DNA from: Deltaproteobacteria bacterium
GTDB lineage: Bacteria > Desulfobacterota > DSM-4660 > Desulfatiglandales > HGW-15
NCBI GenBank assembly: GCA_019310485.1
Contig: JAFDEF010000002.1
Coordinates: 28,124-92,123, forward strand
Direction: 5' to 3'
DNA: 64,000 nucleotides
This document shows, piece by piece, positions 43,844-62,769 of the stretch. Numbering within the stretch: the stretch's first letter is position 1; the number at the start of each line of letters is the position of its first letter. A program made the position numbers and the translations under genes. A model generated the notes under the pieces. The model searched no databases. It saw only the letters and a list, made by a program, of their open reading frames with translations, and had not been told where the DNA came from.

Positions 43844-44875
43844 TCAAGTCTGCAGTGTGTCCAGAAACTCCATAAGAGGAGAAAGCTTCTTATCTCCCAG
43901 GTTCTTAACAAGGCTTTTCAGGGACCCCAGGGCGTGGGGGATGTACGCTTCAAAGTATGCTTTCCCCTGCCTCTTGCTCAGAAAGGCAAAAGCTCCAAGG
44001 ATCTGAAGGTTTCTCTGTATTGCCAGGTATGGATATGAAATTTCAAAGGAATGGACCATTGATGGCTTGTTCTCCTGGAGCAGGCTGATATAAGCCTCGT
44101 ACACCTGCTTCTTCTCAGAACCAGAGAGTTCTGTGTACGGATCAATTATTAAGGAGGCAAGGTCATAAGCAAGAGGTCCCAGGCGGCCTCCCTGCCAGTC
44201 CAGAATCCCTATTTTTTCGCCTGAAAGAATAATGTTCCTGGACTGGAAATCGCGGTGAAGAAAGAAGTCGGCTCCCGCCTTTTCCCCCATGTCTGCCAGG
44301 TAATCGAAAGCGCCTTCAAGTTCAGGCAATCGCTCCTTTAGCCCGAGGTAACTGGCCAGAAAGGCATCGCAGAAATAATCGGACTCGTAGCGCCGCATTA
44401 CAACACGGTCATATCTTTCGGTCTGGCAGGTCCAGGCAGTATCAAAGCCTTTTGCACCTTCTAGCTGAAGTCGAAAAAGAATCTGAACCGCTTTTTCATA
44501 CAGCAAAAGCCTCTGATCGCTGTTAAGCGCTTTTTCCTGGAGGCTTTCCCCACCCATGTCTTCCAGGATAAAGAACCCCCTTTCCACGGAAGCCCTGTAG
44601 ATCTGGGGCACCGGCAACCCTTTGCTGAAAAGATGCTTCCCAATCATCAGGTAGGCGTAGTTTTCACGTACCGAGAGATCATCGTGCGGGGGATTTTCCA
44701 TGGTTACGTAAGTAGTGCTGTCAGTGCGGGGGGAAATGCGCCAAAACCGCCTCTTTGAACCATTTCCGGCAATGGCTCTGCAATCAAATGTTTTATCGGA
44801 CAGGCCTCTTTGCTTTAGAAAAACGGAAATGAATTCCTTCAATTCGGCACTGCACTCCTCACTTGGTTCAACCAT
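43844..44875 (-). CDS. aminoglycoside-phosphotransferase-fold kinase (APH/AmgK-like)
   Basis: 343 aa with the Brenner-type motif FLHRDFQSRNI and a downstream DWQ (metal-binding) motif. Confidence 0.7.
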   Translation of the reverse strand: MVEPSEECSAELKEFISVFLKQRGLSDKTFDCRAIAGNGSKRRFWRISPRTDSTTYVTMENPPHDDLSVRENYAYLMIGKHLFSKGLPVPQIYRASVERGFFILEDMGGESLQEKALNSDQRLLLYEKAVQILFRLQLEGAKGFDTAWTCQTERYDRVVMRRYESDYFCDAFLASYLGLKERLPELEGAFDYLADMGEKAGADFFLHRDFQSRNIILSGEKIGILDWQGGRLGPLAYDLASLIIDPYTELSGSEKKQVYEAYISLLQENKPSMVHSFEISYPYLAIQRNLQILGAFAFLSKRQGKAYFEAYIPHALGSLKSLVKNLGDKKLSPLMEFLDTLQT

Positions 44876-44951
44876 CTCAGCCGTCCTTCAAAGGCGTGAA
44901 AGGCCCGATTCTCGTGCTTATAAAAGGTGACGATTCCTTCTCACCACACTT

Positions 44952-45839
44952 TCATCCGGCAAGAAGAAAAAACCCGTTGTCGACTACTACCCTTCCCTGC
45001 TCCTTGAGACGCTCAAGATGCTTTTTCATCATAGCCTTTTCAGAAAGGGAAAGATCCCAAAACCCAGCTACGACTCTTGGAGGGCCATAGATAATGCCCT
45101 GCTCGGTGATCTCCTCGAGTGACTTTGCCCCTCCTGAAAGGAAATCAATAAGCCTTTCTTCTCTTTCCTCTATTATCCCTAAATATCGGGTAACGTAAGA
45201 AGGATCACCGTCAAATATTCCTTCTCCGTGAGCAGTGAGGTAGGTTTCTACCTCGATTGTAGCGATCCGGTTTAGGGATTCAATGATATCGTTGAGACTC
45301 CCGTTTACATCGCCATAATAAGGTCCTGCCTGTGTTAGATCCAGGTCACCCAGGTACAGAACCTTATCCTCCAGGAAATGGAAAGCACAGTGCCCCGGAG
45401 TATGACCGGGCGTGTGGATGACCCTGCAATGGGTATTTCCGAAGTCAAGCACCTCCCCATCCCTGAGCAAACGATCAGGCTTTCGTGGCTCGTAGAGGCT
45501 CACTTTTTCAATCAGCTCTTTCCACTGGGCCCTTTGAGCTTCAGTTTCGGGGGCATAGCAATCCACTAGGTTCTCAACATCAAGAAAAACCGGGGCATCC
45601 TGCTCGTGGACCCAGAATTGTGCTCGAGGAAAAAGCGCGTTATACATGGTGTGATCCTCATGGCCATGGCTGGCTATTAAGATATCAACCTGTCTTTCGC
45701 TGTCAATTGCAGTGAGAACGTCTTTGTGGCTGGATGCGTCAATAAACGCACGGCGTTCATCATCAACAAAGACAGTATGGCAATGTGGGTACTTACCACC
45801 TCGAATGAACTTTATTGACCCTTTCTCAAATTCAAACAT
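44952..45839 (-). CDS. MBL-fold metallo-hydrolase with a C-terminal wHTH-like extension
   Basis: HGHEDH metal motif, a later HTPGHTPGH, and a C-terminal ~70-aa helical extension. Confidence 0.8.
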   Translation of the reverse strand: MFEFEKGSIKFIRGGKYPHCHTVFVDDERRAFIDASSHKDVLTAIDSERQVDILIASHGHEDHTMYNALFPRAQFWVHEQDAPVFLDVENLVDCYAPETEAQRAQWKELIEKVSLYEPRKPDRLLRDGEVLDFGNTHCRVIHTPGHTPGHCAFHFLEDKVLYLGDLDLTQAGPYYGDVNGSLNDIIESLNRIATIEVETYLTAHGEGIFDGDPSYVTRYLGIIEEREERLIDFLSGGAKSLEEITEQGIIYGPPRVVAGFWDLSLSEKAMMKKHLERLKEQGRVVVDNGFFLLAG

Positions 45840-45860
45840 CCACTTACACCCTCAAGAAAA

Positions 45861-46646
45861 TCAATCCAATCTTCTTGCCGCTTCTGCTCTGGCTAACAGC
45901 GCCGCCCCAAGGGCGCCCATTATTTGTGGCTCTTCAGGAACAAGAATCTCAAGGCTGAGCTCGTCTTCCAGTGCTTTTTTCATGCCCTCGTTCTTAGCCA
46001 CACCCCCTGTAAAGACAACTTCTTTTCTGAAACCAACGGATCTACCCATGAGGGCTACGCGGTGAGCCATAGCCTTATGAATGCCGGCAATAATATTCTC
46101 ACGGCTTTCACCCCGTGCACGCAGTATAACCATTTCTGACTCGGCAAATACGGTACAAGTACTGCTAATCGAACAAGGTTCAGTGCCTTGAAGAGAAATC
46201 CTTCCCATGTTATCGATACCTATACCCAGCACTTTTGACATGACTTCAAGAAACCTTCCAGTCCCCGCAGCGCATTTGTCATTCATAACAAAATTGTCCA
46301 CATTGCCTTTGTCATCGATCCCTATCACCTTACTATCTTGTCCTCCGATATCAATAACAGTCCTTGCCTCTGGTACCATCCAATTCACACCGCAAGCATG
46401 ACAAATAATCTCCGTGATTGCCTTATTGCTCAAGGCAACAGCATTTCTTCCATAGCCTGTGGAGACAACAAAGGAAAGCTCCTGAATTTTACGCCCCGAA
46501 TTTTCAAGAGCCTCTCGGATCACCGATTCCGCAGCCGTAGAAACATCATAACCGGTAGGAATAACAACAGAGCCGGTTACCGATTCATCACTCAGAATAA
46601 CCGCCTTCGCTGTAGCGGCTCCTACATCAATACCGGCAACCATCAT
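45861..46646 (-). CDS. acyl-CoA dehydratase activase (BadF/BadG/BcrA/BcrD ATPase; HgdC-like)
   Basis: 261 aa with GIDVGAATAKAV, DIGGQDSKVI and the cluster-bridging Cys context (NDKCAAGTGRFLE). Confidence 0.85.
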   Translation of the reverse strand: MMVAGIDVGAATAKAVILSDESVTGSVVIPTGYDVSTAAESVIREALENSGRKIQELSFVVSTGYGRNAVALSNKAITEIICHACGVNWMVPEARTVIDIGGQDSKVIGIDDKGNVDNFVMNDKCAAGTGRFLEVMSKVLGIGIDNMGRISLQGTEPCSISSTCTVFAESEMVILRARGESRENIIAGIHKAMAHRVALMGRSVGFRKEVVFTGGVAKNEGMKKALEDELSLEILVPEEPQIMGALGAALLARAEAARRLD

Positions 46647-46754
46647 AAAAGTCTTGACCAGCCTTCACACACATTTCATATCTGTTGATCTATTGGGGTT
46701 CGAAATCTGATGGCTATTGAGATTTACGCCTGCCTATAACCTGAGAACTGGATT

Positions 46755-48152
46755 TCATGCTTTTGCCTTTCTAGCCCTGAGCATTTCTGCAAACGTTTCC
46801 ACCTTTGTCCTCAATGCTTCCGCCCCATAAGTTCTGCTCTCATAGTAATCCATCTCCAGTGAGAGGGTGGGTATTCCTGTTTCCTCCTCTATGAATTGCT
46901 TGAAAAGATGGGAACCAAGTGCCATCGGCCTGCAATTGTACTGATAGCCCCATATAACACCATCCATACTAAGGCTTCGAGCGGCCTCCGCAAATCTTTT
47001 TGCAAATCCGTAAGTGCTATGATAAGCACCTCCTCTCATGGCGCTCTCAGCCAGCTCTTCGCCAAGGCTGTAAAGTTTCAATGACTTGTCACGCTTGCCA
47101 GGTGGGACGGTTACAAAAGACGCAGCTAAAGCAAGGCCTGCCTTTTCTATCATATGTGTTATCCCTGGGTCAGAGAATGAGTGTGCGAAATTCAGAACCC
47201 GGGGAGCCCCCTTTTCCAGAATACCATAGCCGCTCTTAACGCGCCCTTCTACTTCCTTGCACAAAGTGCTCAGTGCATCAGGCCCCTCGCTCATGGAACG
47301 TCCTGTGGAAGCTGCTGCCAAGTTCATTGCAATCCCCGACACCACGCCGCTGATGGGCATCGGATCAGCCGTCATTAAAGAGGTAAGTTGTCCCAGGGCG
47401 CTATAAAGCACTCGGCTCGTAGCCATCGCCTTCTTCATGGAGCGTCGGGTGACTTCAATGCCGAGGATTTTCTCAACATTTGCGAAGAGCTTATCCAGTT
47501 GTCCGCCAAGAAACCTTATTCTTTCAAGATCGTAGCGGGGAAATTCTCCCCACCTCGAATCCATTGACCCGTCTATGTAAACTGCGGGATGACCATATAT
47601 TTCGTGAAGCAATTCATCCGCCTTTGAACCCATGTCACAATAATAACTTGATGCTATCACCAGATCGGGAACAGGGACAACCCCCAGGGCCAGCCCACCA
47701 TTTCTTATTTGCTGAAGAGAGCATAGTCCGTGGCCTGGTGGTAATCCATTTGTTTCGGCAGCCTCTAAAAAAGGAGCCAATTTATCAAAAATCAGACCTA
47801 CCGTATGGCACAGAACAACATCGGGGCACCCGACATAGACATTTTCTCCAGATTCGGAGCTTATTGCCATCCCCGGCCCCTGGATGCTTGGGTAGCCGTA
47901 GTATATGACCGTTTTGCCCTCTTCTTTCGCCAGAACAAGGTCCAGCAGCTCAAGAATCCAGGCCCTCAAGATCTTTCTCACCCCCTCCAGTTCAACCTCA
48001 TGTTGCTCCCGGAGCCTTTGCTCGACACGGGGTATGTCTTCAGGGCCTACCCCTATCTTATCAAGCGCCCTTTCAATTCTTGATCTTTCCCTTTCTATCT
48101 CAGTGTCCTGAAATCCACAGATCCCAAATATTCTGTCATAATATTCCGGCAT
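46755..48152 (-). CDS. 2-hydroxyacyl-CoA dehydratase / benzoyl-CoA reductase B/C-family subunit
   Basis: 465 aa, HgdA/B-BcrB/C-family size and context, with conserved Cys positions. Adjacent to a partner subunit and the activase. Confidence 0.7.
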   Translation of the reverse strand: MPEYYDRIFGICGFQDTEIERERSRIERALDKIGVGPEDIPRVEQRLREQHEVELEGVRKILRAWILELLDLVLAKEEGKTVIYYGYPSIQGPGMAISSESGENVYVGCPDVVLCHTVGLIFDKLAPFLEAAETNGLPPGHGLCSLQQIRNGGLALGVVPVPDLVIASSYYCDMGSKADELLHEIYGHPAVYIDGSMDSRWGEFPRYDLERIRFLGGQLDKLFANVEKILGIEVTRRSMKKAMATSRVLYSALGQLTSLMTADPMPISGVVSGIAMNLAAASTGRSMSEGPDALSTLCKEVEGRVKSGYGILEKGAPRVLNFAHSFSDPGITHMIEKAGLALAASFVTVPPGKRDKSLKLYSLGEELAESAMRGGAYHSTYGFAKRFAEAARSLSMDGVIWGYQYNCRPMALGSHLFKQFIEEETGIPTLSLEMDYYESRTYGAEALRTKVETFAEMLRARKAKA

Positions 48153-48154
48153 CT

Positions 48155-49297
48155 TTATTTCCCCAGATTGTAAATGAATGTCTCGATACGTGTCTGCATG
48201 GGCCCAGCTTCTGAAGGATCGTAATCGGATTCCAGCACGAGCATGGGAACAGAGGCTTCTTCTTTCAAACGCTTCGGGAAATAATAGGACTCTGTCTTAT
48301 AGGACTCACGAAACATAAGTTGATACCAGATTACGCCATCTACTTTAAAACGTTTCACCAGTTCGATTAGAAAATCGAGCCTCTCCCGACCTGGTCTGAA
48401 CCAGGCTGGGGGAACTCTCTTCATGAAATAAGCTTCAGCCAGGAGCGCAAGAAGATCTGAACCCGTCGACACATTTTCCCAGTAAGGCCTGATCCCTTCC
48501 GCAAATTCCTCTATAACTATATTCCCTCCAGCCTCTTCAATAAGATTGACAACAGTGGAATCTCCCATCGCCAGTGTTGATCCGGTCAGAAGAATCCGGG
48601 GACGTTTTTGTATTCTTAAGGGGTCTTCTTCTATTTTAGTAACGACTGATTCGAGGAGGCCAATCATAAATGCCTTATCAGCAACAAAGGATCCATGGTT
48701 GAGGGCAACAAAGTCTTTTCCGCTTAGAGGCGGCGGGTCTGAGGTACGCAGCATGCTTATTTTTTTTATTAACTCCCTTTCCTTGTTACAGAGAAGGATA
48801 GCCTCCCTAAGCTTGGAGTAGCTGATTCTAGTTCCGGTTATTTCCTCCGCTTTCTCTTTGAACTTGTTTACACCATGAAGGTAATACCTGAAAGCAGATT
48901 CTTCTTTCATGTGCGGTACACCAAATGGGAAGATCTCAATATCCGTATTGTAGTCCAGTACGTCCGATATTGCCCGCGTATGATTATCCGTGATTGGAAT
49001 AGCCAGCAGATCCAGGAGCTTGTAATAGGGATCCAGGCCGGATATCCCGTACCCTATTTGAGCCCTGCAGAAGCTATCGAACCAGCGGCAAATATAGGAA
49101 CTTGAAAGCTCGACTGCAGAGTGATCGCCACCGCGCACAAGGCCAATAGGAATAGCTCCGGCAGCAATAACGATTTCTTCCGGTAGATACCCGCCAGGGA
49201 TATAGCCAACAACCTTTCTACCCTCCCTTCTGGCCTGAATTATTTCATGCTCCCTAGTTGCAAGGTGCGAAAGTAATTTTTCGGTCAATTCCTTCAC
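48155..49297 (-). CDS. 2-hydroxyacyl-CoA dehydratase family subunit (partner)
   Basis: Family-typical ...GRKVVGYIPGGYLPEEIV..., CRWFDSFC. I chose the GTG at 49297 (AAAGGAA upstream), just after the thiolase stop. The track start at 49399 would overlap the thiolase by 65 nt. Confidence 0.7.
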   Translation of the reverse strand: MKELTEKLLSHLATREHEIIQARREGRKVVGYIPGGYLPEEIVIAAGAIPIGLVRGGDHSAVELSSSYICRWFDSFCRAQIGYGISGLDPYYKLLDLLAIPITDNHTRAISDVLDYNTDIEIFPFGVPHMKEESAFRYYLHGVNKFKEKAEEITGTRISYSKLREAILLCNKERELIKKISMLRTSDPPPLSGKDFVALNHGSFVADKAFMIGLLESVVTKIEEDPLRIQKRPRILLTGSTLAMGDSTVVNLIEEAGGNIVIEEFAEGIRPYWENVSTGSDLLALLAEAYFMKRVPPAWFRPGRERLDFLIELVKRFKVDGVIWYQLMFRESYKTESYYFPKRLKEEASVPMLVLESDYDPSEAGPMQTRIETFIYNLGK

Positions 49298-49334: not shown

Positions 49335-50534
49335 TTACGGGCCAACAATGTTAACGGAGACCGTGCACCCCCCTGGCGTCCCTCCCAGGTTGTGAGCAAG
49401 CCCCAGTTCCGGGTTCTTTACCTGCCTCTGGCCAGCTTTCCCCTGAATCTGCTTGTAAAGTTCATAAACCATCCTCAAACCCGATGCCCCTATTGGATGG
49501 CCGAAACACTTTAACCCACCGTCCATATTTACGGGCAGTTCGCCGTTCAGTTCAAAGGTCCCAGCCTCGATGTCCTCCTTACAACGCCCCCTTGGAGAAA
49601 ACTGAAGATCTTCGTAGATTACGGCCTCTGTTATGGAAAAGCAGTCATGAACTTCAGCCATGCTTATTTCCTTTCTCGGGTTCTTGATCCCAGCTTCATC
49701 ATATGCGGCCTGACCAGCCCTGAAAGTTTCCTGAACCATGGTCCAGTCATTCTTGGGATTCATATATCCATCGGAAGGCCCCACCGCAATTTGTGATGCT
49801 TTGATAAACACAGGATCAGACCTAAAACTCCTTGCCATCTCCTTTCTTACCAGAATGGCTGCAGCTGCTCCGTCACTTACACCGCAGCAATCCAGCAATC
49901 CCAGAGGCCACGCAATTACCGGGGCTTTGAGAACCTGCTCGACTGTGATCTCCCTCCTGAAGTGGGCTTTTGGAGACATCGTGCCATTGTGGTGATTTTT
50001 TACCATAATTTTGGCAAGCATGGTTCTTCCTTCCTCAGGATCAAGGCTGTATTTGTTAAAGTAACTTGTAGCCATCATGGCAAAATGGCCCGGAGCAGTG
50101 AAGTTGCGGCTTCTGAAAGTGTTGGGCGCTGTGGAAACAAGGCCCATTGCAATATCATCGGTTGGCAATCCACTGTAGCCCGAGTCTTTAAGCTTCTCAA
50201 ATCCAATGGCAAGCGCGATGTCATAAACTCCAGAAGCAACTCCATACGCTGCATTGCGCAGTGCATCAGAAGCAGTGGCACACATGTTCTCCAGGCGTGT
50301 AACCGGCCTGTAGTCAAGTTTCAGAAGCGTCGCCAGAGGCTGGCTAGGTGCAGGCAGATTGGACCAGTATGAACCGACCCACACAGCCTGGATATCCACC
50401 GGCTCAATTCCGGCATCTTCATACGCCTCGTACACGGCCTCAATAATCATATCGTCTGAGCTCTTATCCCAGTTCTCTCCAAACTTCGTGCATCCCATAC
50501 CGACTATGGCAACCCTGTCTTTAATACTCTCCAT
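49335..50534 (-). CDS. thiolase-superfamily protein (SCP-x / nonspecific lipid-transfer-type thiolase)
   Basis: 399 aa with RVAIVGMGCTKFG, a nucleophile context ENMCATAS and a C-terminal GHPIGASG. Confidence 0.85.
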   Translation of the reverse strand: MESIKDRVAIVGMGCTKFGENWDKSSDDMIIEAVYEAYEDAGIEPVDIQAVWVGSYWSNLPAPSQPLATLLKLDYRPVTRLENMCATASDALRNAAYGVASGVYDIALAIGFEKLKDSGYSGLPTDDIAMGLVSTAPNTFRSRNFTAPGHFAMMATSYFNKYSLDPEEGRTMLAKIMVKNHHNGTMSPKAHFRREITVEQVLKAPVIAWPLGLLDCCGVSDGAAAAILVRKEMARSFRSDPVFIKASQIAVGPSDGYMNPKNDWTMVQETFRAGQAAYDEAGIKNPRKEISMAEVHDCFSITEAVIYEDLQFSPRGRCKEDIEAGTFELNGELPVNMDGGLKCFGHPIGASGLRMVYELYKQIQGKAGQRQVKNPELGLAHNLGGTPGGCTVSVNIVGP

Positions 50535-51990: not shown

Positions 51991-52029
51991 AGCTACCTCC
52001 AAAAGGTCCTCATGTTTTTTTCGCTTGTG

Positions 52030-53198: not shown

Positions 53199-53552
53199 TC
53201 ACCAGAACTGCACATCGTTGATACTTTCTTCCCTCATCAAGAACCCTTTGATCTTTCTTCTTTCATCTTCATCCGCAATCGGATCAACCAAAGAGATGGC
53301 GTTCCCTTGAGCATCGCTCCTGTACTTCCACTTTTTCACATATCCTGGAACAAGAGCATATCTACACCCCCAGACCCCGCAGCAGGAAGAGTCGACAACC
53401 GCATTGCCTACGACATAAAGGATGTCAAGCCCTTCCATGTCGATTCTCTCCTCACGCTCAAGCATGTACCTTCCGGATATAGACCTGATCTCCTTGCCTA
53501 GCTCGTGCGTATAATCTTTAGCCATCTTTGTTTTCGCCTCATTTTCCTGCAA
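53199..53552 (-). CDS. hypothetical protein
   Basis: 117-aa ORF (start could be the internal ATG at 53525). It contains a DSSCCGVWGCRY motif. It lies within the operon with short gaps on both sides. No family recognised. Confidence 0.4.
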   Translation of the reverse strand: MQENEAKTKMAKDYTHELGKEIRSISGRYMLEREERIDMEGLDILYVVGNAVVDSSCCGVWGCRYALVPGYVKKWKYRSDAQGNAISLVDPIADEDERRKIKGFLMREESINDVQFW

Positions 53553-55163: not shown

Positions 55164-55336
55164 GTTCCGTTTCCTCCTTTGTGAATATTTCGATCCTTCG
55201 GCATCTGCTCCCCCTACCCGGATCCCGTCAGCAAGGTTGCTTTCCAGTGGGAACAGTTTAAAGATTCTCCTGTAGCGGAGGCCCCGGGAAAAGGATCGCC
55301 GCCGTCTGTGATCTTTTAACTCCCTGACTTTGCCCC

Positions 55337-56596
55337 TTACTCTTTTTGAAGTATGTTTATGCAACAAGAGAACTCTTCAGTGGATATCACCCCTCCTCCG
55401 TTTTCAGTTAGACCTATTTTCGCATTTCTAACCTGCCGCGCTCCAGCCTCGCCTCGTAGCTGGCTGATGATTTCATATATCATTGAAAGGCCGGTTGAGC
55501 CTACCGGGTGCCCCTTGGATACAAGCCCCCCTGAGGTATTAACTGGAATGGTTCCCTCCAGCTTTGTGGCTCCTGACTCTATAAATTTTCCGCCTTCTCC
55601 TATTGGACAGAAACCCAGCATCTCTGCCTGGTAAATCTCACAAAAAGAAGTGGCATCATGAAGCTCTGCCACATCAATGTCTTTCGGTTCAAGATCCGCC
55701 ATTTTGTAAGCCCTATCGGATGCCCATTTGCTTAAGCTCGGCTCTTTGATGTCTCTATGCTTCCCTGACGAAAGAACACTAGCGATCACCTTTACGGCTC
55801 TGGACCTCACCTCAGGTGGCTGGCTCTTTAAGTAATCTTCAGAGCAAAGAATAGCAGCCGCCCCTCCATCACCTATCGGCGCACACATGGACCTTGTTAG
55901 AGGATAGCTGACCATATAATCTTCCAGAACTTTTTCCACCGGGACCTCGAACTGGTACTGCGCCTTGGGGTTGAGAGAACCATAATAATGATTTTTTGAG
56001 GCCCCTATTGCTATTTGCCTCTGGGTGGTTCCGTATCTCCACATGTGCCAGCATGCCTGCATTGCATAAGTATCCATGAAAATGGTGTGCCCGGGACCGA
56101 GCTTGAATTCTCTGCCGCACTCTTTACCCACAGCCTCATACTCTTGAACCAGTCTTTGTTTGTCGCTCCTGTCTATTCCCTGCTCATAGGCGAACAACAC
56201 CTTTTCCATGTCGGGATGGTAGAATTTGTCAACACCTATGGCCAGGGATACATCGCACTGACCGCTTAATATATCCTTCCAGGCTCCGTGAAACGCCATT
56301 GAAGCCGTGGCGCAGGCACCCTCGACATTGATAATGGGGATGCGCTCGGGGAAAACTCCTTCCTCCACCAGGGGAGACATACAGACGTGTCCCCTGATTA
56401 TGTCCTGTTCCCACAGCGTTCCCATGGAACAACTCCCAAACCATGCAAACTCGATATCTCTCCCGTCTTTCATCCTGGCGTCTTCAAGAACCCCTAGATA
56501 GGTATCGCGGGTCAAATCCTTCATGGATTTATCGAGCCACTTTTTGAACCTGGTGCTATAGGAACCTATAACGTAAACGCTGCCCGGCTTTTTCAT
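55337..56596 (-). CDS. thiolase-superfamily protein (SCP-x type)
   Basis: 419 aa with nucleophile context EGACATAS and a C-terminal GHPVGSTG. Confidence 0.85.
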   Translation of the reverse strand: MKKPGSVYVIGSYSTRFKKWLDKSMKDLTRDTYLGVLEDARMKDGRDIEFAWFGSCSMGTLWEQDIIRGHVCMSPLVEEGVFPERIPIINVEGACATASMAFHGAWKDILSGQCDVSLAIGVDKFYHPDMEKVLFAYEQGIDRSDKQRLVQEYEAVGKECGREFKLGPGHTIFMDTYAMQACWHMWRYGTTQRQIAIGASKNHYYGSLNPKAQYQFEVPVEKVLEDYMVSYPLTRSMCAPIGDGGAAAILCSEDYLKSQPPEVRSRAVKVIASVLSSGKHRDIKEPSLSKWASDRAYKMADLEPKDIDVAELHDATSFCEIYQAEMLGFCPIGEGGKFIESGATKLEGTIPVNTSGGLVSKGHPVGSTGLSMIYEIISQLRGEAGARQVRNAKIGLTENGGGVISTEEFSCCINILQKE

Positions 56597-56675
56597 TTCT
56601 CAGCCTCCGTGTACTTAACTTCCACATGTGTGTATTGCAAAAGATGGGGGGTTTGTTGCATCATTATCCGTTTTG

Positions 56676-57125
56676 CTAGGTTCGCATGTGGAACATCATC
56701 TTGTAGTCAAAAACCATTACTTTTTCACCCTTTTGGTTTTTTACGCTATAGCGCCACACCTGCACCCCACGGTCAGGCTTGCTTGTTTTTTGCTTGTCTA
56801 TAACTTCCACCTCGACACTTATGGTATCTCCAATATAGACAGGAGCCAGCATTTTCATATTGTCTGCCCCCAGCCATGCGATGGCAGCGTCTCCTGCAAA
56901 ACCTTTAGTGCTCACCAGGCCCACTGCCAGGGCAAAGATCAAGGGTCCATGTGCAAGTCTCTGACCGAATTGGCTTTTGGCTGCATACTCCTTGTCTACA
57001 TGGAGCGGGTAAAAGTCCATAGTGAGCCCTGCCCAGTTTACCAGGTGTGTCTCGGTTACCGTTATGGCACCTGTTGTGTAAACATCCCCCACATTAAAAT
57101 CGTCTCCGTACTTGCTGTGTTCCAT
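56676..57125 (-). CDS. MaoC-like (R)-specific enoyl-CoA hydratase/dehydratase (hot-dog fold)
   Basis: 149 aa with ..DFYPLHVDKEYAAKSQFGQRLAHGPL..., the typical MaoC signature. Confidence 0.85.
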   Translation of the reverse strand: MEHSKYGDDFNVGDVYTTGAITVTETHLVNWAGLTMDFYPLHVDKEYAAKSQFGQRLAHGPLIFALAVGLVSTKGFAGDAAIAWLGADNMKMLAPVYIGDTISVEVEVIDKQKTSKPDRGVQVWRYSVKNQKGEKVMVFDYKMMFHMRT

Positions 57126-57215
57126 ACTTTACCTCACTTTTTTCTCAAATTGCTGTTTTTGTGATCAAGAGGGTTTCCTTTAGCAGAAGATTGGGCTTCT
57201 TGCCCAAAACATTTC

Positions 57216-57629
57216 TCACTCCTTGGCCGGCTTGAATTTGGGTAATGTAAACCCATCGTTTAGTTTTTCAAATGTTACCTCTACAGGCATGTCGCATTTG
57301 AGCTCACTGGGTTCACAACCAACTATATTGCTCAACATTTGAACACCCTCTTCAAGTTTTATGATTGCTACCACATAGGGCATATCATCAATAAAGGCAG
57401 AGGGAGCATTATTCACTACAACAGTATAGGAATATATCGTCCCCTTGCCGGATGCTTCCACCCACTCGACATTTTCTGAAAAGCAATAAGGACATACAAT
57501 TCTCGGGTAGAAAATAAATTTTTCACAGTCCTTGCATTTTTGAATCAGCAGTTTTCTTTCGCGAGCGCCCTCCCAGAAAGGTTTTGCCCACGGATTCACA
57601 ACTGGAAGTGGTTTTTTGATCTTTCCCAT
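57216..57629 (-). CDS. DUF35 Zn-ribbon/OB-fold protein (thiolase scaffold subunit)
   Basis: 137 aa with CKDCEKFIFYPRIVCPYC followed by an OB-fold (GTIYSYTVV...VVAIIKLEEG). Confidence 0.85.
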   Translation of the reverse strand: MGKIKKPLPVVNPWAKPFWEGARERKLLIQKCKDCEKFIFYPRIVCPYCFSENVEWVEASGKGTIYSYTVVVNNAPSAFIDDMPYVVAIIKLEEGVQMLSNIVGCEPSELKCDMPVEVTFEKLNDGFTLPKFKPAKE

Positions 57630-57643
57630 ATCAGTCCTCCTCC

Positions 57644-58828
57644 CTATGGAATCTCAGTGCCTAAAATAGTAACTTGCGCATCCATGTAAGTCCCTCCTGT
57701 TCCTGTCTCTACTGCAAACCTGGCCCCTTCCACCTGCCTTTGTCCCGCCTTTCCCATCAGTTGCCTAGCGGCTTCGACAATGAGGGAAACCCCGCCTCCT
57801 GCTCCTATGTGCCCTTTGGAGAGCATGCCTCCATCGGTGGTGGTAGGGATTTTGCCTCCTGGCCATGTCTCTCCTCTCATAAATATTTCACCTGCTTCTC
57901 CCCTCTGGCAAAACCCCAGTTCCTCAAAGCCGATGAGTTGATATACCGGGTAAGAGTCGTAGATTTCAGCAACGTCAATATCCTCAGCGCTCAGTCCTGC
58001 TTCACCAAAGGCCTCCTTTGCCGCTTTTGCCCAGCCAAACCGGCACAAGTCAGGTTCCTGAGAAAATACAAAATGGGTAACAACTCCGCCTTCGCCCAGC
58101 ACATAGACAGGTTTGTTAGGAAGATCCTTTGCCCTTTCTGCAGACGTGAGGATAAAGGCCGAGCCTCCATCAAAAAGCATATTGGACATCTTTGCCCTCA
58201 AGGGCGTGGAGAGCATCTTGGAAGAAAGCACCTCCTCTATTGTAAGCGGCTTTTTGAAGAACGCGTTGGGATTTAATTCCGCCCACTTTCTGTTTGAGAC
58301 GCACACTGCCGCCAGTTGCTCATCAGTGCAACCCGTTTCAAACTTGTATCTGGTTGTCGTGAGTGCAGCTATGGCCGAGTAGTGCTGACCATAAGGAACC
58401 TCCCACTCCGCAGAAATTCCGGCAGTGGAGAACAGGTCTATCCCCTCCTGCAAGTTCACTCCAGTGCCAAGTCTGTCAGCATGGACATATAAAACATACT
58501 TGGCCGCACCTGTAACAATGAGACTACCGGCCATTTGAAGTCCACAGCTTCCGCTTGAGCCCCCTGAAAAAACCTGGCAGTTCTTCTTGCAATTGACCAG
58601 ACCCAGTTCCTCTACAATACGTGAGGTAACCAGTTCCGTATTAAACTGGGGGCTAAAAAGTGCTGCTGTTGGCATAACAAAATCGATCTCTTCCTTTTTT
58701 ATGCCAGCATCTTTTATGGCGCGCCGTGCAGACTCAATGGCATGGTAAATAGCCGCTGTTTCCGGAAATCTTCCAGTAGGAACCTCGCCGATTCCAACAA
58801 TTGCCACTTTGCCTCTTAACCCAGTCAT
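57644..58828 (-). CDS. thiolase-superfamily protein lacking the canonical nucleophile Cys (possible Ltp2-like aldolase/lyase)
   Basis: ATG at 58828 (GGAGGAG RBS). Where the two paralogs have (M/A)CATAS, this one has GGSSGS by eye alignment. The C-terminal GHIGAGGG is retained. Confidence 0.75.
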   Translation of the reverse strand: MTGLRGKVAIVGIGEVPTGRFPETAAIYHAIESARRAIKDAGIKKEEIDFVMPTAALFSPQFNTELVTSRIVEELGLVNCKKNCQVFSGGSSGSCGLQMAGSLIVTGAAKYVLYVHADRLGTGVNLQEGIDLFSTAGISAEWEVPYGQHYSAIAALTTTRYKFETGCTDEQLAAVCVSNRKWAELNPNAFFKKPLTIEEVLSSKMLSTPLRAKMSNMLFDGGSAFILTSAERAKDLPNKPVYVLGEGGVVTHFVFSQEPDLCRFGWAKAAKEAFGEAGLSAEDIDVAEIYDSYPVYQLIGFEELGFCQRGEAGEIFMRGETWPGGKIPTTTDGGMLSKGHIGAGGGVSLIVEAARQLMGKAGQRQVEGARFAVETGTGGTYMDAQVTILGTEIP

Positions 58829-58956
58829 AAAAGTCTCCTCCACGCGGGTTACAAATTTTTCAAAACTCTTTTCTAAAAGCTCCCAGAGATCGCCCTCTAT
58901 TCATTGCCTTAAAGACCTTTGCCGCGTTCAGCTCTCTCCGCGATACCCATTTTGTT

Positions 58957-60264
58957 TCAAGCATGCTTCAGGCGGGTTGCAGCATCCTTGGCTGCAGCTA
59001 TCCCACTCTGGGCAGCTCCCGCCATTGCGGTCATGCCTGGTTCTGAGATAAAGCCGTCCCCAACAGCATATAGATTCACTATTGGAGTTCTTTGAGGCAT
59101 GGCCTGCCCTGCGATGCTAAACATTGCGGGCCAGTCTCCATGGTAGATTCCAGTCATTAATACCTCTGCATGGGATTCAAAGGCAGGCAGAATTTCCCTC
59201 AGGTCCTGCAGGCAGAGGTCAATTTCTTCCCGCGCTTCTATTGGATTGAGGGAACTCACGGGATCCGCGCCGGCAACCAAGTAATGGGTTCCCGGTGGTG
59301 CCAGTTCAGGACATACGCTGGTAAGCTGAAAAATAGCATTCACCCTTCGGGCCCCAACAACAAGCAAGTGGTCATAGTCCAGCAAAGGCACCTCGGATTT
59401 TATATGAATACCAATGGCTCTGGCCGGCGTAAGCCTCCCGAGCGCCTCAACGTAGCCCTTGCCAAAGTTTTCTTTGCCTGCAAGGGCCACTGTCCTCCCC
59501 GGCCCGCAATTACTTATTACCACAGAAGCTTTCACTTCCAGCTCCTTGCCTCCCCTGCGCACAATAGCCCCCGTGACCTTTCCATCTTCTGAAAGAATAT
59601 GGATTGCTGGAGAGTTCGTCCAAATCTTTCCCTCATGGCGCTCAATCACCTTGGCAAGGGAGCTGGGAAGTGCAATGCTACCCTCGGGGCAAACTCCCCA
59701 GTCGCGAAAGCCCCTGTGTTGCTTTAGAAAAAGGAAAAACCCCTTGGCTGATATCTGATCTATGCCCACAATCGCTGTGGCCGCTGCCATTGTTTGAAAT
59801 AGATCAAGCACACTCTTGGTCTTTGCAAACTGCAAGAGCCACTCCTTCATGGTGATTGTTTCAGGCGGCGGAGCCCAGTTCATGGCTCTGGCGAAAGCCC
59901 TGACAACCCCCTCAATTTCATCCTCATCATCAGTTGCAGCTGAGAGCAGGGCCCTCAGTCCTCCTTTAGCAGGTAGTTCCACTACCTTTCCGTTAATGAG
60001 GTAGTGAGGAATGCCACATTCCCGAACGTTAAACTCGGCCCCAACATGTTGAAAAAGTTCTTCAAGCGGGCCGCCCAGACCCGGACCTACCACTCCCGTG
60101 GTGCACTTTATCCCGTTATACTCAATAGTTGAACAATGCCCTCCAATACGCGGCAGTGCCTCAACTACCAGAACCTTGTATCCCTCATGGCTTAAGTAAG
60201 CCCCGGCGCACATTCCCGCTATGCCGGAACCTATAATGAGCACTTCAACCTGTTTTTTTGCCAT
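58957..60264 (-). CDS. FAD-dependent oxidoreductase (phytoene-desaturase / amine-oxidase-like fold)
   Basis: 435 aa with the dinucleotide motif VLIIGSGIAGMCAGAYL and a C-terminal FAD motif (LYAVGDG). Confidence 0.8.
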   Translation of the reverse strand: MAKKQVEVLIIGSGIAGMCAGAYLSHEGYKVLVVEALPRIGGHCSTIEYNGIKCTTGVVGPGLGGPLEELFQHVGAEFNVRECGIPHYLINGKVVELPAKGGLRALLSAATDDEDEIEGVVRAFARAMNWAPPPETITMKEWLLQFAKTKSVLDLFQTMAAATAIVGIDQISAKGFFLFLKQHRGFRDWGVCPEGSIALPSSLAKVIERHEGKIWTNSPAIHILSEDGKVTGAIVRRGGKELEVKASVVISNCGPGRTVALAGKENFGKGYVEALGRLTPARAIGIHIKSEVPLLDYDHLLVVGARRVNAIFQLTSVCPELAPPGTHYLVAGADPVSSLNPIEAREEIDLCLQDLREILPAFESHAEVLMTGIYHGDWPAMFSIAGQAMPQRTPIVNLYAVGDGFISEPGMTAMAGAAQSGIAAAKDAATRLKHA

Positions 60265-60442
60265 GACCCTCTCCCTCGTTGTTCTCCTTCAGTGCCCCCA
60301 CCGGACAAAAATCCAGACAAAGTAAGCATTCACTGCAATTCTCATTGACCTCTGCCCTTCCATAGCACGAAATAGCTCCCTCGGGGCAAACCGGAACACA
60401 CAAAGAACAACCCACGCATCTTTCTTCGACAACCTTAACCAT
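60245..60442 (-). CDS. 2x[4Fe-4S] ferredoxin
   Basis: 65 aa from the ATG at 60442, with CVGCSLCVPVCP and CSECLLCLDFCP. The 3' end overlaps the oxidoreductase start by 20 nt. Confidence 0.8.
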   Translation of the reverse strand: MVKVVEERCVGCSLCVPVCPEGAISCYGRAEVNENCSECLLCLDFCPVGALKENNEGEGHGKKTG

Positions 60443-60612
60443 GATTAACTTCTCTCCTGAAAAGACCCTGCTCAAAGGCTCCTGCAAGTACCTTCAAATG
60501 CAGGGTAGAAAAACTCCCCCTCCCGACACTCACTGGAGGGCTTTTCTGCTGCCGCTCTTCCCGGCACAGCAAAAGCTGCGGCCACGGTGCCGGCCGCATC
60601 TGCCCCTCCCGG

Positions 60613-61758
60613 CTACAAGCCGAGTTGTTTACCTATTATGTTTTTCTGAATCTGGGTGGTTCCACCTCCTATGGAAAGAACCAGCACATCCCGGAGGTAT
60701 CTTTGCGCATCATATTCCATGGTATATCCATATCCACCAAGGATCTGCACACCATTTAGTGCAATTTTCTTGGCAACCTCTGAGCAGAAGTACTTGGACA
60801 TCGAAGTCTCTTTTACACACTCCATCCTTTGAGTTTCTTTCCATGCAGCATAGTACGCAAGCCTTCTCGCAGCCTCTAATTCAGTTGCCATATCCACCAG
60901 TTTATGCTGGATAACCTGGAAAGTCCCGATAGGCTTCCCAAACTGCTCTCTTTGTTTCGCATAATTGAGTGCATACTCAAATGCTCCCTGGCCTATGCCC
61001 AGTGCACAGGCTGAAAGCAAGAGCCTCTCCGTATTGAGCAGTCTCATCATTTGTTTCCATCCGTGATTAAGGCACTCGGGTCCTCCAAGGATATTTTCAA
61101 GTGGCACCTCGACATCATCATAGTATACTTCACAAGTGTTGGAGCCTCTGTAGCCAAGATCTTTGATCGGCCTCGTGCTGAATCCTTTAGAAGAAGTTTC
61201 CACAAGGAAATCAGTAATTCCACCAAACCTTGGCTCTGCCGTCCGAGCATTCGTGACCACGATATCACTAACCCCCGCTCCGGTTATAAATATCTTGCTC
61301 CCATTGATGATGTAGCGTCCATCCCTCAGTTCGGCCTTGGTGCGAATGCTCGCCGCATCTGATCCGGCATTTGGCTCGGTGAGCGCGTAGGCAAAAATCA
61401 CCTCCCCCTTGGCGAGCCTGGGAAGATATTTTTTCTTTTGCTCCTCGCTTCCATTTGTCTTGATTATCTCATTACCATAAAGGATGATGTTCCCTGCTGC
61501 CCACGCAAGCACCGGAAGAGCCCTGGATATTTCTTCGAATAGGATCATTTCGTCTACAATATTACCCCCCTGCCCCCCGTACTCTTCCGGTACATTGATG
61601 CCCATTATTCCCAGCTCGCTGAGTTTTGCGAGCAGTTCACGCGGAAACCTGTCTTGCTCGTCGATTTCTCTTGCAACCTCGGGAGGAATCTCAGCTTGCG
61701 TGAACTTTCGAACCATGTCTCTGAGCATGTTTTGTTCTTCTGTGAAACTGTAATCCAT
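60613..61758 (-). CDS. acyl-CoA dehydrogenase
   Basis: 381 aa with typical ACAD N/M/C domains (..ALTEPNAGSD.., ..QILGGYGY..). Confidence 0.9.
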   Translation of the reverse strand: MDYSFTEEQNMLRDMVRKFTQAEIPPEVAREIDEQDRFPRELLAKLSELGIMGINVPEEYGGQGGNIVDEMILFEEISRALPVLAWAAGNIILYGNEIIKTNGSEEQKKKYLPRLAKGEVIFAYALTEPNAGSDAASIRTKAELRDGRYIINGSKIFITGAGVSDIVVTNARTAEPRFGGITDFLVETSSKGFSTRPIKDLGYRGSNTCEVYYDDVEVPLENILGGPECLNHGWKQMMRLLNTERLLLSACALGIGQGAFEYALNYAKQREQFGKPIGTFQVIQHKLVDMATELEAARRLAYYAAWKETQRMECVKETSMSKYFCSEVAKKIALNGVQILGGYGYTMEYDAQRYLRDVLVLSIGGGTTQIQKNIIGKQLGL

Positions 61759-61863
61759 TTACTCCTTCCTCCTAGTTCACCCTTTCTCTTACGACAGCAG
61801 GTCATAAAAAAAGCCTGCTCATTTTTCAGTCCACTCTCTCCCCTGAATCGCGCAAATAAGGCA

Positions 61864-62769
61864 TTAGGCTTTACCTGGATCTATGCTACTTACAAGCCTT
61901 TTGCACGCTTCATGATAGTTTTGGACCATTTCACGTATCACTTCTGCTGCGCTCTTTATTTCGTCAACCTGCGCCACACTCTGACCTGCGCTCCAAAACT
62001 CCCGCCAGCGCTTCGAGCGCACATGCGGTTGCCTGTCAAAGCTTTCTATGCTTTTTGCGATCCAGGTAGCCCGGTTTCCGGTTATCCTGTCAGTGCAAAC
62101 TATGTCTTCAGGACCAGCCTGCACCACTGCTTTTTTGTATTCAGTGAGAGCCCTTGACTCTGTCGTTGCAACCAGTCTTGTCCCAACTACAACGGCACAG
62201 GCACCTATGGCCATAGCCGCCGCCATTTGTGCGCCTGTGCTGATACCTCCAGCCGCTATTACGGGAAGCCCTGTTTTCGATTTAAGGTACGGAACCAAAA
62301 TTATAGTTGGTATTTCGCCGCAGTGACCCCCGGCACCGCACGCCACTGCCACAAGCCCGTCAACGCCCCTCTCACGTGCTTTCAGCGCCTGCTCGAGGTT
62401 AATTACGTCGGCAAAAACTCTCCCTCCACTAGCATGGACATCGTCGAGGATCAATCGTGGATCCCCAAGGGAAGATATAAAAAACTTCACGCCTGCTTCC
62501 AGGCACAGACCAAGTTGTTCTTTCCAGTCAAACCTTCCTGAAAGATGGATATTAACTCCAATGGGTTTATCTGTTCTTTCCCTAATCTTGATAAGTGTTT
62601 TTTTCAGTTCCTCTGTGGTACGGAAATTTGGAAGAGGAATAGCGCCCATTCCCCCGGCCTCCGAGACCGCTGCCGCGAGCTCCTCGTAGGATATCAAGAA
62701 CATTGGCGCGCCTATGATGGGATAATCAATACCCATCATTTTGGTGAACTCTGTTTCAATCCTTTTCAT
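61864..62769 (-). CDS. nitronate monooxygenase / FabK-like FMN enoyl reductase family protein
   Basis: 301 aa with MGIDYPIIGAPMFLIS...EAGGMGAIP and AAGGI motifs. Confidence 0.8.
   Translation of the reverse strand: MKRIETEFTKMMGIDYPIIGAPMFLISYEELAAAVSEAGGMGAIPLPNFRTTEELKKTLIKIRERTDKPIGVNIHLSGRFDWKEQLGLCLEAGVKFFISSLGDPRLILDDVHASGGRVFADVINLEQALKARERGVDGLVAVACGAGGHCGEIPTIILVPYLKSKTGLPVIAAGGISTGAQMAAAMAIGACAVVVGTRLVATTESRALTEYKKAVVQAGPEDIVCTDRITGNRATWIAKSIESFDRQPHVRSKRWREFWSAGQSVAQVDEIKSAAEVIREMVQNYHEACKRLVSSIDPGKA

Follow-up and report, generated by a model that had tools for sequence, protein, structure and literature searches.

A putative mosaic catabolic island with a Sal/Ltp2-like hydratase–aldolase core in an uncultured sulfate-reducing deltaproteobacterium

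We analysed a 64,000-nucleotide stretch of DNA (the window; C82:28124–92123) from the metagenome-assembled genome (MAG; 3.64 Mb, 103 contigs, 94% complete) of a deltaproteobacterium, in which a long run of minus-strand genes encodes a putative system for the breakdown of CoA-activated acids. The original prediction had described the 18 open reading frames (ORFs) at 43844–62769 as one supercluster serving a single anaerobic CoA-thioester pathway. The assignment to CoA-thioester catabolism holds, but that of one conserved 18-gene unit does not, as only the genes from an NMO-like oxidoreductase through an acyl-CoA ligase and a 117-aa ORF belong to a recurring core. The reading we prefer, with a probability of about 55%, is that the run is a laterally acquired, accreting mosaic catabolic island in which blocks have been added to a conserved retro-aldol-type core for the degradation of imported acids whose beta-carbon is blocked. 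The most interesting piece is this aldolase-type core, which starts outside the coordinates first considered; these cover its distal two-thirds together with a lineage-specific appendix, whose fusion of an HMG-CoA synthase (HMGS)-like domain to DUF35 is of an already known type.

At the centre of the core stand three minus-strand genes: thiol1 (57644–58843), a thiolase-fold protein resembling the Sal/Ltp2-type retro-aldolases, in which only Thiolase_C_1 of Pfam matches; its presumed partner, a stand-alone DUF35 protein with a C4 zinc ribbon and an OB fold (57216–57629; PF12172 and PF01796); and a MaoC-type (R)-hydratase (56676–57125; PF01575, 1.7e-23). We aligned 132 sequences, among them 121 full-length family representatives (of the 150 listed, 29 were fragments of less than 360 aa and were dropped). 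The column of the thiolase nucleophile holds Gly in thiol1 and in 105 of the 121 representatives and Cys in 4, and thiol1 reads FSGGSSG where thiol3, a thiolase encoded further along the cluster, has ENMCATAS. At the position of the thiolase HDxF motif, thiol1 has YDSY, which is kept in all eight orthologs. According to PMC12329534, CtSal combines Gly with YDCY and Ltp2 has YDHF, the Tyr serving as base; the acid catalyst is a Cys in Sal and a second Tyr in Ltp2, and the C304S variant of CtSal is inactive. PMC12960953 describes how an H-to-Y change in the HDxF motif of PfACAT, a DUF35-associated thiolase, nearly abolished thiolysis. A Cys in the sequence KKNCQ had seemed a candidate nucleophile of thiol1; this was a misalignment of three sequences, exposed by the alignment of 132, and the ortholog in locus L007 has Phe there.

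By these residues, the trio appears to have the active-site pattern of the Sal/Ltp2 hydratase–aldolase systems. As in Shy-Sal of Comamonas testosteroni and ChsH1/ChsH2-Ltp2 of the igr operon, the genes for an acyl-CoA dehydrogenase (ACAD), a MaoC protein, a DUF35 protein and a thiolase-fold protein are neighbours; Gly stands at the position of the thiolase nucleophile, Tyr-Asp-x-aromatic occupies the HDxF position, and DUF35 carries a C4 ribbon, here Cys-x2-Cys-x10-Cys-x2-Cys. Chains 9myr_A (152 bits) and 6ok1_A of Ltp2 (138 bits) are among the best solved relatives of thiol1, and MaoC keeps its Asp/His dyad (D-x-x-P-x-H). In contrast to those systems, DUF35 is here a separate protein and not a part of MaoC, the motif reads YDSY, with Ser in third place, a single ordinary ACAD is present, the host is a strictly anaerobic sulfate reducer, and the partners (a CrtI-like flavoprotein, an SDR and the NMO-like protein) differ from those of steroid clusters. 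To our knowledge, hydratase–aldolase cleavage has so far been seen in aerobic and denitrifying degraders of steroids and bile acids. If the assignment is correct, side-chain cleavage of this kind would extend to strictly anaerobic sulfate reducers of hydrocarbon-rich sediments, and the operon would mark the degradation of acids beyond the reach of ordinary beta-oxidation. Among the papers listed in a search of open-access full text, none that names Ltp2 also names sulfate-reducing bacteria.

The same families could in principle build chains instead: thiol1, DUF35 and MaoC, together with SDR and NMO, might perform (R)-specific, ACP-independent chain elongation, or else ordinary beta-oxidation, with no aldolase involved. 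In the archaeal KT/DUF35/ACR/MaoC fatty-acid synthase, as presented in 10.1101/2024.07.05.601840, a thiolase-fold protein, DUF35, MaoC and an SDR are likewise encoded together, the system is CoA-dependent and (R)-specific, and the proteins form a stable complex in Sulfolobus acidocaldarius. The core also encodes an enoyl-reductase-like NMO and SDRs. We nevertheless regard elongation or plain beta-oxidation as highly improbable: with Gly for the nucleophilic Cys and no HDxF His, thiol1 lacks both residues needed for Claisen chemistry, and the importer, two ligases and ACAD point to breakdown. By the same residues, the label ‘acetyl-CoA acetyltransferase’ carried by thiol1-type proteins is probably wrong.

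Comparison with other genomes delimits what travels with the trio. The conserved core, as judged from gene order, would comprise a CrtI-like flavoprotein, SDR, (ABC importer), NMO, ACAD, thiol1, DUF35, MaoC, (thiolase), ligase and (108-aa Cys-rich protein), and it recurs at 65–82% identity in other families of the Desulfobacterota. A search with thiol1 gave matches at E<=1e-90 in 13 of 300 genomes of the phylum and no such match in the sample's 3 genomes of the same family and 6 of the same order; the 8 places at 72–79% identity all lie in other families. Across seven core loci, thiol1, DUF35 and MaoC are always mutually adjacent (MaoC at 68–82% identity), and ACAD lies directly upstream of thiol1 in four. 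The fullest copy, L069, contains AMPabc (67% identity), permeases, SBP (61%), NMO (67%), ACAD (75%), thiol1 (79%), DUF35 (68%), MaoC (82%), thiol2 (78%), ligase (79%) and the 117-aa protein (49%). L071 has CrtI2 (80%), SDR2 (79%), NMO (72%), ACAD (79%), thiol1, DUF35 and MaoC (79%); L074 matches L071 with the addition of the ligase (79%); L075 has a partial NMO, ACAD (78%), thiol1, DUF35, MaoC and ligase (78%); and L070, L072 and L073 show the trio alone. Core copies elsewhere have DUF1302/DUF1329 outer-membrane genes, extra AMP-ligases and a sigma54-type regulator as neighbours, and a pair of B12-binding and URO-D methyltransferase genes lies directly upstream of the copy in L074.

Core proteins are up to 82% identical in other families, whereas the housekeeping APH-fold kinase gene beside the cluster reaches at most 63% identity within the family; this difference points to lateral acquisition of the core. 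Two large genomes of one genus, G348 and G104, hold 6 and 4 matches to the thiol1 family, and the core operon is present at least three times in near-complete form in G348. Paralogous operons for related substrates may therefore form a family.

The remaining genes have a different distribution. HGDa and HGDb (the two HGD-D subunits), the activase, HMGS-DUF35, thiol3, the MBL-fold hydrolase MBL1, the ferredoxin and CrtI1 occur in none of the seven core loci. MBL1, HMGS-DUF35, thiol3, HGDa, HGDb, the activase and a second hydrolase, MBL2, appear to form a lineage-specific appended block. A metagenome scan gave nine loci, and only L019, from a lineage about 77% identical, shares the gene order: a partial ligase (71%), a homolog of the 117-aa protein, MBL1 (53%), a 17-aa remnant of thiol3, an IS200-like fragment, HGDa (76%), HGDb (84%), the activase (79%) and the start of MBL2 (67%). 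At the place of HMGS-DUF35 and thiol3, L019:1959-2640 lies in about 1.2 kb without a long ORF, with the 17-aa C-terminal thiol3 remnant and the IS200-like transposase fragment. In the neighbourhood search proposed with the original prediction, the HMGS-DUF35 fusion as query in genome contigs found only two loci, and the HGDa contexts fetched from relatives were without cluster synteny.

Both hydrolases of the block carry an HGHEDH motif and match PF00753: MBL1 (52030–53166) with a C-terminal extension, and MBL2 (44952–45839). Orthologs of MBL1 occur in 15 of 400 other genomes of the phylum and stand alone, without cluster synteny, in all 13 contexts fetched; one lies directly upstream of an APH ortholog in L048. 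Supposed internal stops in MBL1 orthologs, considered as possible selenocysteine codons, proved to be mere gene ends. The first 42 aa of MBL2 have a 67% identical counterpart after the activase in L019, and L069 encodes a homolog (38%) on the downstream side of its core.

Metagenome contigs show a deletion through the appended block. The stretch was found in 20 DNA runs, and no RNA run; they come from 18 studies and carry the label hydrothermal-vent or sediment metagenome. Metagenome contigs L017 and L018 (99–100% identity) reproduce the order from thiol3 to the activase and from HGDa to the XDH-family genes, and Logan contigs of four runs also reproduce the gene order. In all four of four runs, however, 4910 nt are skipped at a joint 45986->50897 that has 1 nt of microhomology; another joint, 51624->51839, marks a 214-nt internal deletion in HMGS-DUF35. 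Depth is about 2–3x higher on the flanks (44000–45986 and 50897–~54000) than on the skipped part or on 54000–63255. Because the joints lie inside the activase and HMGS-DUF35 genes, both intact in the window, we take the deletion to be the derived state, carried by a more abundant sister strain. That strain has no HGDa, HGDb or thiol3, and lacks most of the activase and the 3' end of HMGS-DUF35; it keeps MBL1, MBL2 and APH without indels and diverges upstream of ~54000 (loose ends at 53834–54144). A protein cluster of truncated HMGS-DUF35, P0248 (358 aa, 99% identical, 15 members), may be the product of this deletion.

These distributions bear on the view first proposed, in which the whole set of 18 or more genes serves a single branched or alicyclic acid as one dedicated pathway and radical dehydration or reduction by HGDab, the DUF35-scaffolded C–C enzymes, the kinase and the MBL hydrolases are each indispensable; we now consider it unlikely. 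The genes are co-directional with listed gaps of at most 125 nt and share a single divergent sigma-54 activator; ACAD, HMGS-DUF35, thiol3, thiol1 and DUF35 occur together in L007, and the order from ligase to MBL2 is common to L019. Set against this are the absence of eight of the genes from every core locus, the solitary MBL1 orthologs, HGDab homologs at 53–70% identity in unrelated contexts, a conserved AmgK-like gene in APH, and a more abundant sister strain that has dispensed with HGDab and thiol3, and in part with the genes for the activase and HMGS-DUF35, while its flanks are intact. Tight co-directional clusters in MAGs can thus be accretions, one strain having already lost 4.9 kb of this ‘pathway’.

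The layout of the genes is otherwise as first described. All 18 minus-strand ORFs at 43844–62769 are present, with gaps of -65 to +125 nt between ORFs as listed, and 17 of them fall in the Pfam families initially named: NMO, ACAD, 2x[4Fe-4S] ferredoxin, amine-oxidase/CrtI-like, three thiolase-fold, DUF35, MaoC, AMP-ligase, two MBL, the FabH/HMGS-like+DUF35 fusion, two HGD-D, the BcrAD/BadFG activase and APH. The eighteenth, the 117-aa ORF, has no family. The gap before the ligase becomes 170 nt once starts are corrected (ligase start ~M68), and 352 nt separate APH from the next gene, which is cytidylate-kinase-like. The full co-directional run is larger, at about 33 genes (~37 kb), and begins outside the window: 12 further same-strand genes lie upstream of 62769, out to C82:104146. 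They encode DUF2284 and DUF1295 proteins, an SDR, a Liv-type ABC importer (binding protein, two permeases, a 607-aa FadD11-like AMP-binding protein and two ATPases), a second SDR, an HpaB-family protein and CrtI2, a second CrtI/amine-oxidase-like flavoprotein and the first gene of the run. The run is bounded there by a divergent gene for a 1041-aa TPR-GAF-sigma54 activator, followed by a FadB/J-like gene. Between activator and CrtI2, 135 nt upstream of the first ATG, lies a candidate -24/-12 element (CGGCAT-N5-CTTGCA), with a 12-nt inverted repeat 70–125 nt further up; together they are a candidate regulatory site, and a lead only. A terminator-like hairpin (60598–60577) directly follows the ACAD gene. 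Inside the cluster, neither the upstream palindrome nor sigma-54 elements recurred above chance.

Several observations weigh against the mosaic-island reading. The family motif at the HDxF position is mixed among the 121 representatives (YDCF 26, YDAF 20, YDSF 14, HDCF 5, YDSY 4). In thiol1, Ser takes the third motif position, where Sal has its essential Cys and Ltp2 a His, so that thiol1 could do other chemistry. Steroid side-chain systems use two-gene ACADs, and that of the island is of the ordinary single-gene type. CrtI2 and SDR2 occur in only two of seven core loci, the contig of L069 starting too late to tell, and the comparison as a whole rests on 7 core contexts and 1 appended-block context outside this population. 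Matches to terminator-like and sigma-54-like patterns occur at chance frequency overall, promoter and terminator counts equalling the shuffled expectation, and tight spacing, a single strand and one upstream activator also fit co-expression as one pathway.

From gene content, active-site patterns, conservation and the deletion we infer the following route. An imported carboxylic acid would be converted to its CoA thioester by the ligase or by the FadD11-like protein of the importer, desaturated by ACAD and hydrated by MaoC, and thiol1, held by DUF35, would then split the 3-hydroxyacyl-CoA in a retro-aldol reaction into acetyl- or propionyl-CoA and a ketone or aldehyde. In bacteria, retro-aldol cleavage serves where oxidation at the beta-carbon is impossible or an aldehyde is the desired product. 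The carbonyl or unsaturated product may be processed by the SDR, NMO and CrtI-like enzymes, unless these prepare the substrate, and the thiolysis that completes ordinary rounds could fall to thiol2 and to thiol3 with its scaffold. Only in this lineage would HGDab and the activase add a single ATP-primed radical step, the dehydration or reduction of a CoA ester. The putative accretions here are ferredoxin with CrtI1, the SCP2 thiolase and the HMGS-DUF35 scaffold, HGDab with the activase, and the two MBL hydrolases. Aromatic (phenylalkanoate) and alicyclic or branched substrates seem about equally likely.

The alicyclic or branched alternative supposes naphthenic-, isoprenoid- or steroid-like acids, from which the core would cut an acetyl or propionyl side chain at a ring or tertiary carbon to leave a ketone, as igr/ChsH-Ltp2 does at C17, with CrtI-like enzymes, SDRs, DUF1295 and MBL then desaturating, hydrating and opening the ring. 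The original prediction had guessed at substrates of this kind, with a blocked beta-carbon, and the guess gains support from the order of ACAD, aldolase-like protein, DUF35 and MaoC and from the Sal/Ltp2 pattern of the trio. It would also suit the DUF1295 protein, which matches the steroid 5-alpha-reductase family at 2.5e-10, the hydrothermal-vent and sediment sources of the DNA, and the DUF1302/DUF1329 genes beside two core copies, which we assume to be linked to the uptake of hydrophobic substrates. We hold it only tentatively, given that no ring-opening enzyme was identified, that ACAD is of a single-gene short/medium-chain type, that the CrtI-like flavoproteins match KstD models solely in the FAD-binding stretch, and that DUF1295, CrtI1 and the ferredoxin lie outside the conserved core. 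A more specific version seems rather doubtful to us: that the core is an undescribed, oxygen-independent means of removing acetyl or propionyl side chains from alicyclic or beta-blocked acids in sulfate-reducing Desulfobacterota, through a new YDSY active-site variant of Sal/Ltp2 whose DUF35 stands alone and which is coupled to a CrtI-like flavoenzyme, and that HGDab and the activase represent a new ATP-dependent family with two subunits, reductase or dehydratase, for which the ring product is the substrate.

The aromatic alternative turns on the HGD-type enzyme. HGDa (48155–49297; PF06050, 1.3e-72) is a small subunit of 380 aa with 3 Cys, HGDb (46755–48152; PF06050, 1e-35) the large and presumably catalytic one, and a single gene encodes the activase (archerase) ATPase (45861–46646; TIGR00241, 283 bits against a cut-off of 125). 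As in the Had, Bzd, Mbd and double-cubane cluster protein (DCCP) systems, two HGD-D subunits accompany a BcrAD/BadFG-type activase and Cys residues are few, consistent with the 3-Cys [4Fe-4S] type; as in Had, Bzd and Mbd, a CoA ester is the likely substrate, given the ligase and thiolase alongside. The best PDB matches of HGDb are MbdO (2e-16), DCCP (8e-10) and HadB (1.6e-5), so that even its nearest solved relative, the catalytic (beta) subunit of 3-methylbenzoyl-CoA reductase, is remote, and no equivalog cut-off of the Had, Bzd or DCCP families was reached. For HadBC/HadI the architecture fits but the scores do not (HadC 99.6 against 700 bits, HadB 31.8 against 750), and Pfam detected neither the CoA-transferase nor the 2-hydroxyacid dehydrogenase domains of had operons in the run. 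The Bcr/Bzd test failed likewise (BzdN 94.2 against 453.8, BcrC 83.7 against 421.15 and BzdQ 198.2 against 380.2 bits), and class I benzoyl-CoA reductases (BCRs) have four subunits, two of them distinct ATPases, where the island has one activase gene. HGDab and the activase are best described as a putative divergent, heterodimeric, 3-Cys-type member of the dehydratase/BCR superfamily, which may catalyse either dehydration or reduction.

DCCP was both the best NCBIfam and the best PDB match of HGDa (model NF040772, 213.6 bits against a cut-off of 350), and we rejected this identity: HGDa has 3 Cys only, HGDb has 7 at other spacings, a tolerant motif search found no match, and the motif CX19CX18-19CX29CX166-170CX32-34CX32C (PMC7317905) is absent from both subunits. 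The pair is an instance of HGD-D proteins scoring best against a double-cubane model without being a double-cubane protein. HGDa has 884 metagenomic homologs at E<=1e-60 and matches in 46 of 61 related genomes, the best 59% identical; in eight contexts among relatives, HGDb adjoins in four and the activase in two, with no other cluster gene.

Were the island an aromatic funnel, phenylalkanoates or hydroxycinnamates would be shortened, the core freeing an aryl aldehyde and acetyl-CoA by a CoA-dependent, non-beta-oxidative cleavage; the XDH-family enzyme would oxidise the aldehyde, the ligase would re-activate the acid, and HGDab, activase and ferredoxin would act as a two-subunit ATP-dependent aryl-CoA reductase feeding Had and Oah. 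The genome has Had (488 bits, cut-off 338.65) and Oah (479 bits, cut-off 464.45), the XDH-family enzyme lies downstream of the cluster, and the best solved relative of HGDb is an aryl-CoA reductase subunit. Corrinoid methyltransferase genes adjoin the core in L074 and lie 30–50 kb off in the window, and contig C7 has a paralogous set in the order ligase, thiolase, activase, HGD, HGD, activase. Counting against the funnel are the Bcr/Bzd scores, all far under their cut-offs, and the one activase gene in place of two ATPase subunits. The XDH genes are unlinked to the core elsewhere, and their beta-type subunit (292 aa; 114 bits against 404.55) does not reach the length of its counterpart in 4-hydroxybenzoyl-CoA reductase. 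Known hydroxycinnamoyl-CoA hydratase-lyases are crotonase-fold rather than thiolase-fold. The funnel is possible and no better than tentative.

Two further HGD-type systems occur in the genome. At C7:14909-22922 (L077) lie a ligase, a thiolase, an activase, an HGD-D protein (164 bits with the bzdN model), an HGD-like protein of 465 aa and another activase; arranged like a four-subunit BCR, they could form the aryl-CoA reductase of this organism. The genome also has the lower benzoyl-CoA pathway, at C38:42901-46123 (L076), with a Dch-like crotonase, Oah and Had. In a same-family genome, an HGDa homolog (39%) sits directly upstream of another XDH-family three-gene set (L013; G023:C98:12630-17570), a second case of HGD beside XDH.

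Among described pathways, the cluster had been said to match none of bbs, bam/bcr or thn, and this agrees with our scores and domain comparisons. BbsA reached 48.3 of 250 bits and BbsB 135.7–186.3 of 750, and no curated bcr/bzd, had or FabK equivalog cut-off was attained. The thn operon of N47/NaphS2 is the closest in outline, judging from PMC12016498: a long one-strand operon with an ATP-dependent HGD/BCR-type enzyme, ferredoxin, MaoC, thiolases, ACADs and a metallo-hydrolase, which degrades an alicyclic CoA ester in a sulfate-reducing host. Compared by domain content with that description of thn, the ~33 genes lack the four-subunit reductase ThnBCDE, crotonase-type hydratases and hydrolases, the CoA-transferase ThnP and the AtuA-like lyase ThnQS. 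The island has instead DUF35 partners, an aldolase-like protein, MBL hydrolases and CrtI-like flavoproteins.

Among the families compared, membership appears clear only for the PfACAT/HMGS-DUF35 type. The fusion (50575–52002, identified by Pfam and by alignment to 6esq_I) is followed by thiol3 (49335–50534; NF004810, 557 bits against 403), an SCP2/archaeal-type thiolase and its presumed catalytic partner, with C85, HDCF and GHP; the best PDB match of thiol3 is 6esq_A (5e-58), and it is 83% identical in L007. In the HMGS-like domain, Leu107 stands at the catalytic Cys and Phe230 at the catalytic His, Glu45 and Asn262 of the HMGS tetrad being kept, and the model NF003274 scores 236.2 bits against a cut-off of 244. 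We checked the 120 best of at least 2761 homologs: the Cys position holds Leu in 117, Ile in 1, Val in 1 and a gap in 1, never Cys; the His position holds His in 2; and the four zinc-ribbon Cys are kept in all 120. PhlA likewise lacks both the Cys and the His. Because both catalytic residues are missing, the fusion cannot, on its predicted sequence, be an HMG-CoA synthase, which overturns the enzymatic HMGS label given earlier and casts doubt on that of a family of at least 2761 proteins, the catalytic Cys being missing in all 120 checked.

The fusion and thiol3 would instead match the PfACAT/HMGS-DUF35 type, an already known arrangement in which an inactive scaffold serves a degradative thiolase. 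According to PMC12960953, PfACAT/HMGS-DUF35 of Pseudomonas fluorescens makes no HMG-CoA and cleaves acetoacetyl-CoA. Shared features are the loss of the HMGS Cys and His, the adjoining SCP2/archaeal-type thiolase that keeps Cys, HDxF and GHx, and the lack of a biosynthetic neighbourhood. The pair described here differs in retaining Glu45 and Asn262 and in lying within a putative anaerobic catabolic island, directly upstream of an HGD-type enzyme. Further relatives are PhlACB (5m3k) and the archaeal thiolase/HMGCS/DUF35 complex (6esq). In L007, a deltaproteobacterial MAG, ACAD (77%), HMGS-DUF35 (65%), thiol3 (83%), thiol1 (52%) and DUF35 (50%) form a row among propionyl-CoA/methylmalonyl-CoA genes.

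Of the other core genes, the FMN-dependent NMO/FabK-like oxidoreductase (61864–62769; PF03060, 1.9e-38) scores 171.6 bits against the 453.1 cut-off of the FabK model and has orthologs 65–74% identical beside ACAD in L069, L071, L074 and L075. ACAD itself (60613–61758) matches three ACAD domains; its orthologs are 75–79% identical in four of seven core loci. Two genes are inserted relative to the core: a 2x[4Fe-4S] ferredoxin (60245–60487; Fer4 families), absent between ACAD and thiol1 in L069, L071, L074 and L075, and CrtI1 (58957–60264; PF01593, 3.4e-21), a CrtI/amine-oxidase-like flavoprotein only 20% identical to CrtI2. The best PDB match of CrtI1 is 3ka7 (8e-35), an uncharacterised archaeal oxidoreductase. 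We dropped a CtmAB- or delta-24-desaturase-like role for the CrtI-like proteins, an idea taken from PMC11061730, as such uncharacterised archaeal oxidoreductases were their only PDB matches.

Downstream of MaoC, the SCP2-type thiolase thiol2 (55337–56596) has a Cys in EGACATAS and HDAT and GHP motifs; its ortholog holds the same position in one of seven core loci, L069. The acyl-CoA ligase (53589–55166; AMP-binding, 1.4e-81; NF004837, 494 bits against 476) is listed as an ORF to 55367 and probably starts at M68, from where the L069 ortholog aligns. Orthologs at 78–79% follow MaoC or thiol2 in L069, L074 and L075. The small Cys-rich protein after it (53199–53525; motif DSSCCGVWGC) is 117 aa as listed and 108 aa from M10; it had been called an unknown and keeps that status, with no match in Pfam, NCBIfam or the protein Atlas. 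It has homologs after the ligase in L069 and in L019 (43–69%, split over two frames).

At the upstream side of NMO, the DUF2284 Cys-rich metal-binding protein (62825–63367; PF10050, 5.5e-43) and the 287-aa DUF1295/steroid-5-alpha-reductase-like membrane protein (63447–64000, continuing past the window end; PF06966, 1e-51 for the part inside the window, 3.8e-70 for the complete gene in L006) are not present in the core operon copies of other genomes. The DUF2284 protein matches the C-terminal parts of the NCBIfam MbdU and ArsM-DUF2284 selenoprotein models at 111 bits each, far under the cut-offs. This strict anaerobe encodes two HpaB-family proteins, one in the cluster (C82:101071-102618) and one at window 13751–15172. 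A check of the cluster protein for an AbfD-like [4Fe-4S] site did not find the CxxxC pair, which we take to be the ligand pattern of 4-hydroxybutyryl-CoA dehydratase (AbfD).

The two units at the downstream end are neighbours of the island, not shown members. The APH-fold kinase (43844–44875), counted in the original prediction as part of the cluster, is single-copy in 33 of 40 relatives and is probably a housekeeping, AmgK-like kinase of cell-wall recycling outside the pathway, because relatives place it beside a MurU-like nucleotidyltransferase and a GH3 gene: in four contexts, a MurU-like NTP_transferase adjoins in two (with the GH3 gene beside it) and is nearby in one. Some sources name it N-acetylmuramate 1-kinase; it scores 103.8 bits against the 550 cut-off of NF045759, and the MurU homolog of this genome lies on another contig. 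A 25-hydroxysteroid-kinase-like role with MBL as phospho-lyase, suggested by PMC8449060, was dropped in favour of this conserved AmgK-like identity. The cytidylate-kinase-like gene and the three-subunit XDH-family Mo enzyme, identified by Pfam, form a separate unit after the 352-nt gap (38981–43491; FAD subunit 41718–42596, 2Fe-2S 41251–41739, Mo 38981–41254), in the order first described and repeated in L018. Its XdhA score is 661 bits against 780, and that for the alpha subunit of 4-hydroxybenzoyl-CoA reductase 600 against 994.55.

The host is an uncultured sulfate reducer from hydrothermal or sediment metagenomes, with dsrA above its cut-off and no glycyl-radical enzyme found in the 94%-complete genome. 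Elsewhere in the window, a minus-strand trio at 5716–9862 encodes an amidase, a Fer4_11 protein and a DMSO-reductase-family molybdopterin oxidoreductase, and a corrinoid toolkit at 9996–16189 comprises a CobA/BtuR adenosyltransferase, a RACo reductive activator, DUF6951, the second HpaB-family gene and a short URO-D-like ORF. Genes at 16292–24399 for a CCG/Fer4_8 protein, an FAD-linked oxidase, MmgE/PrpD (588 aa), TRAP DctPQM and a GntR/FCD regulator appear to be another importer-linked organic-acid unit.

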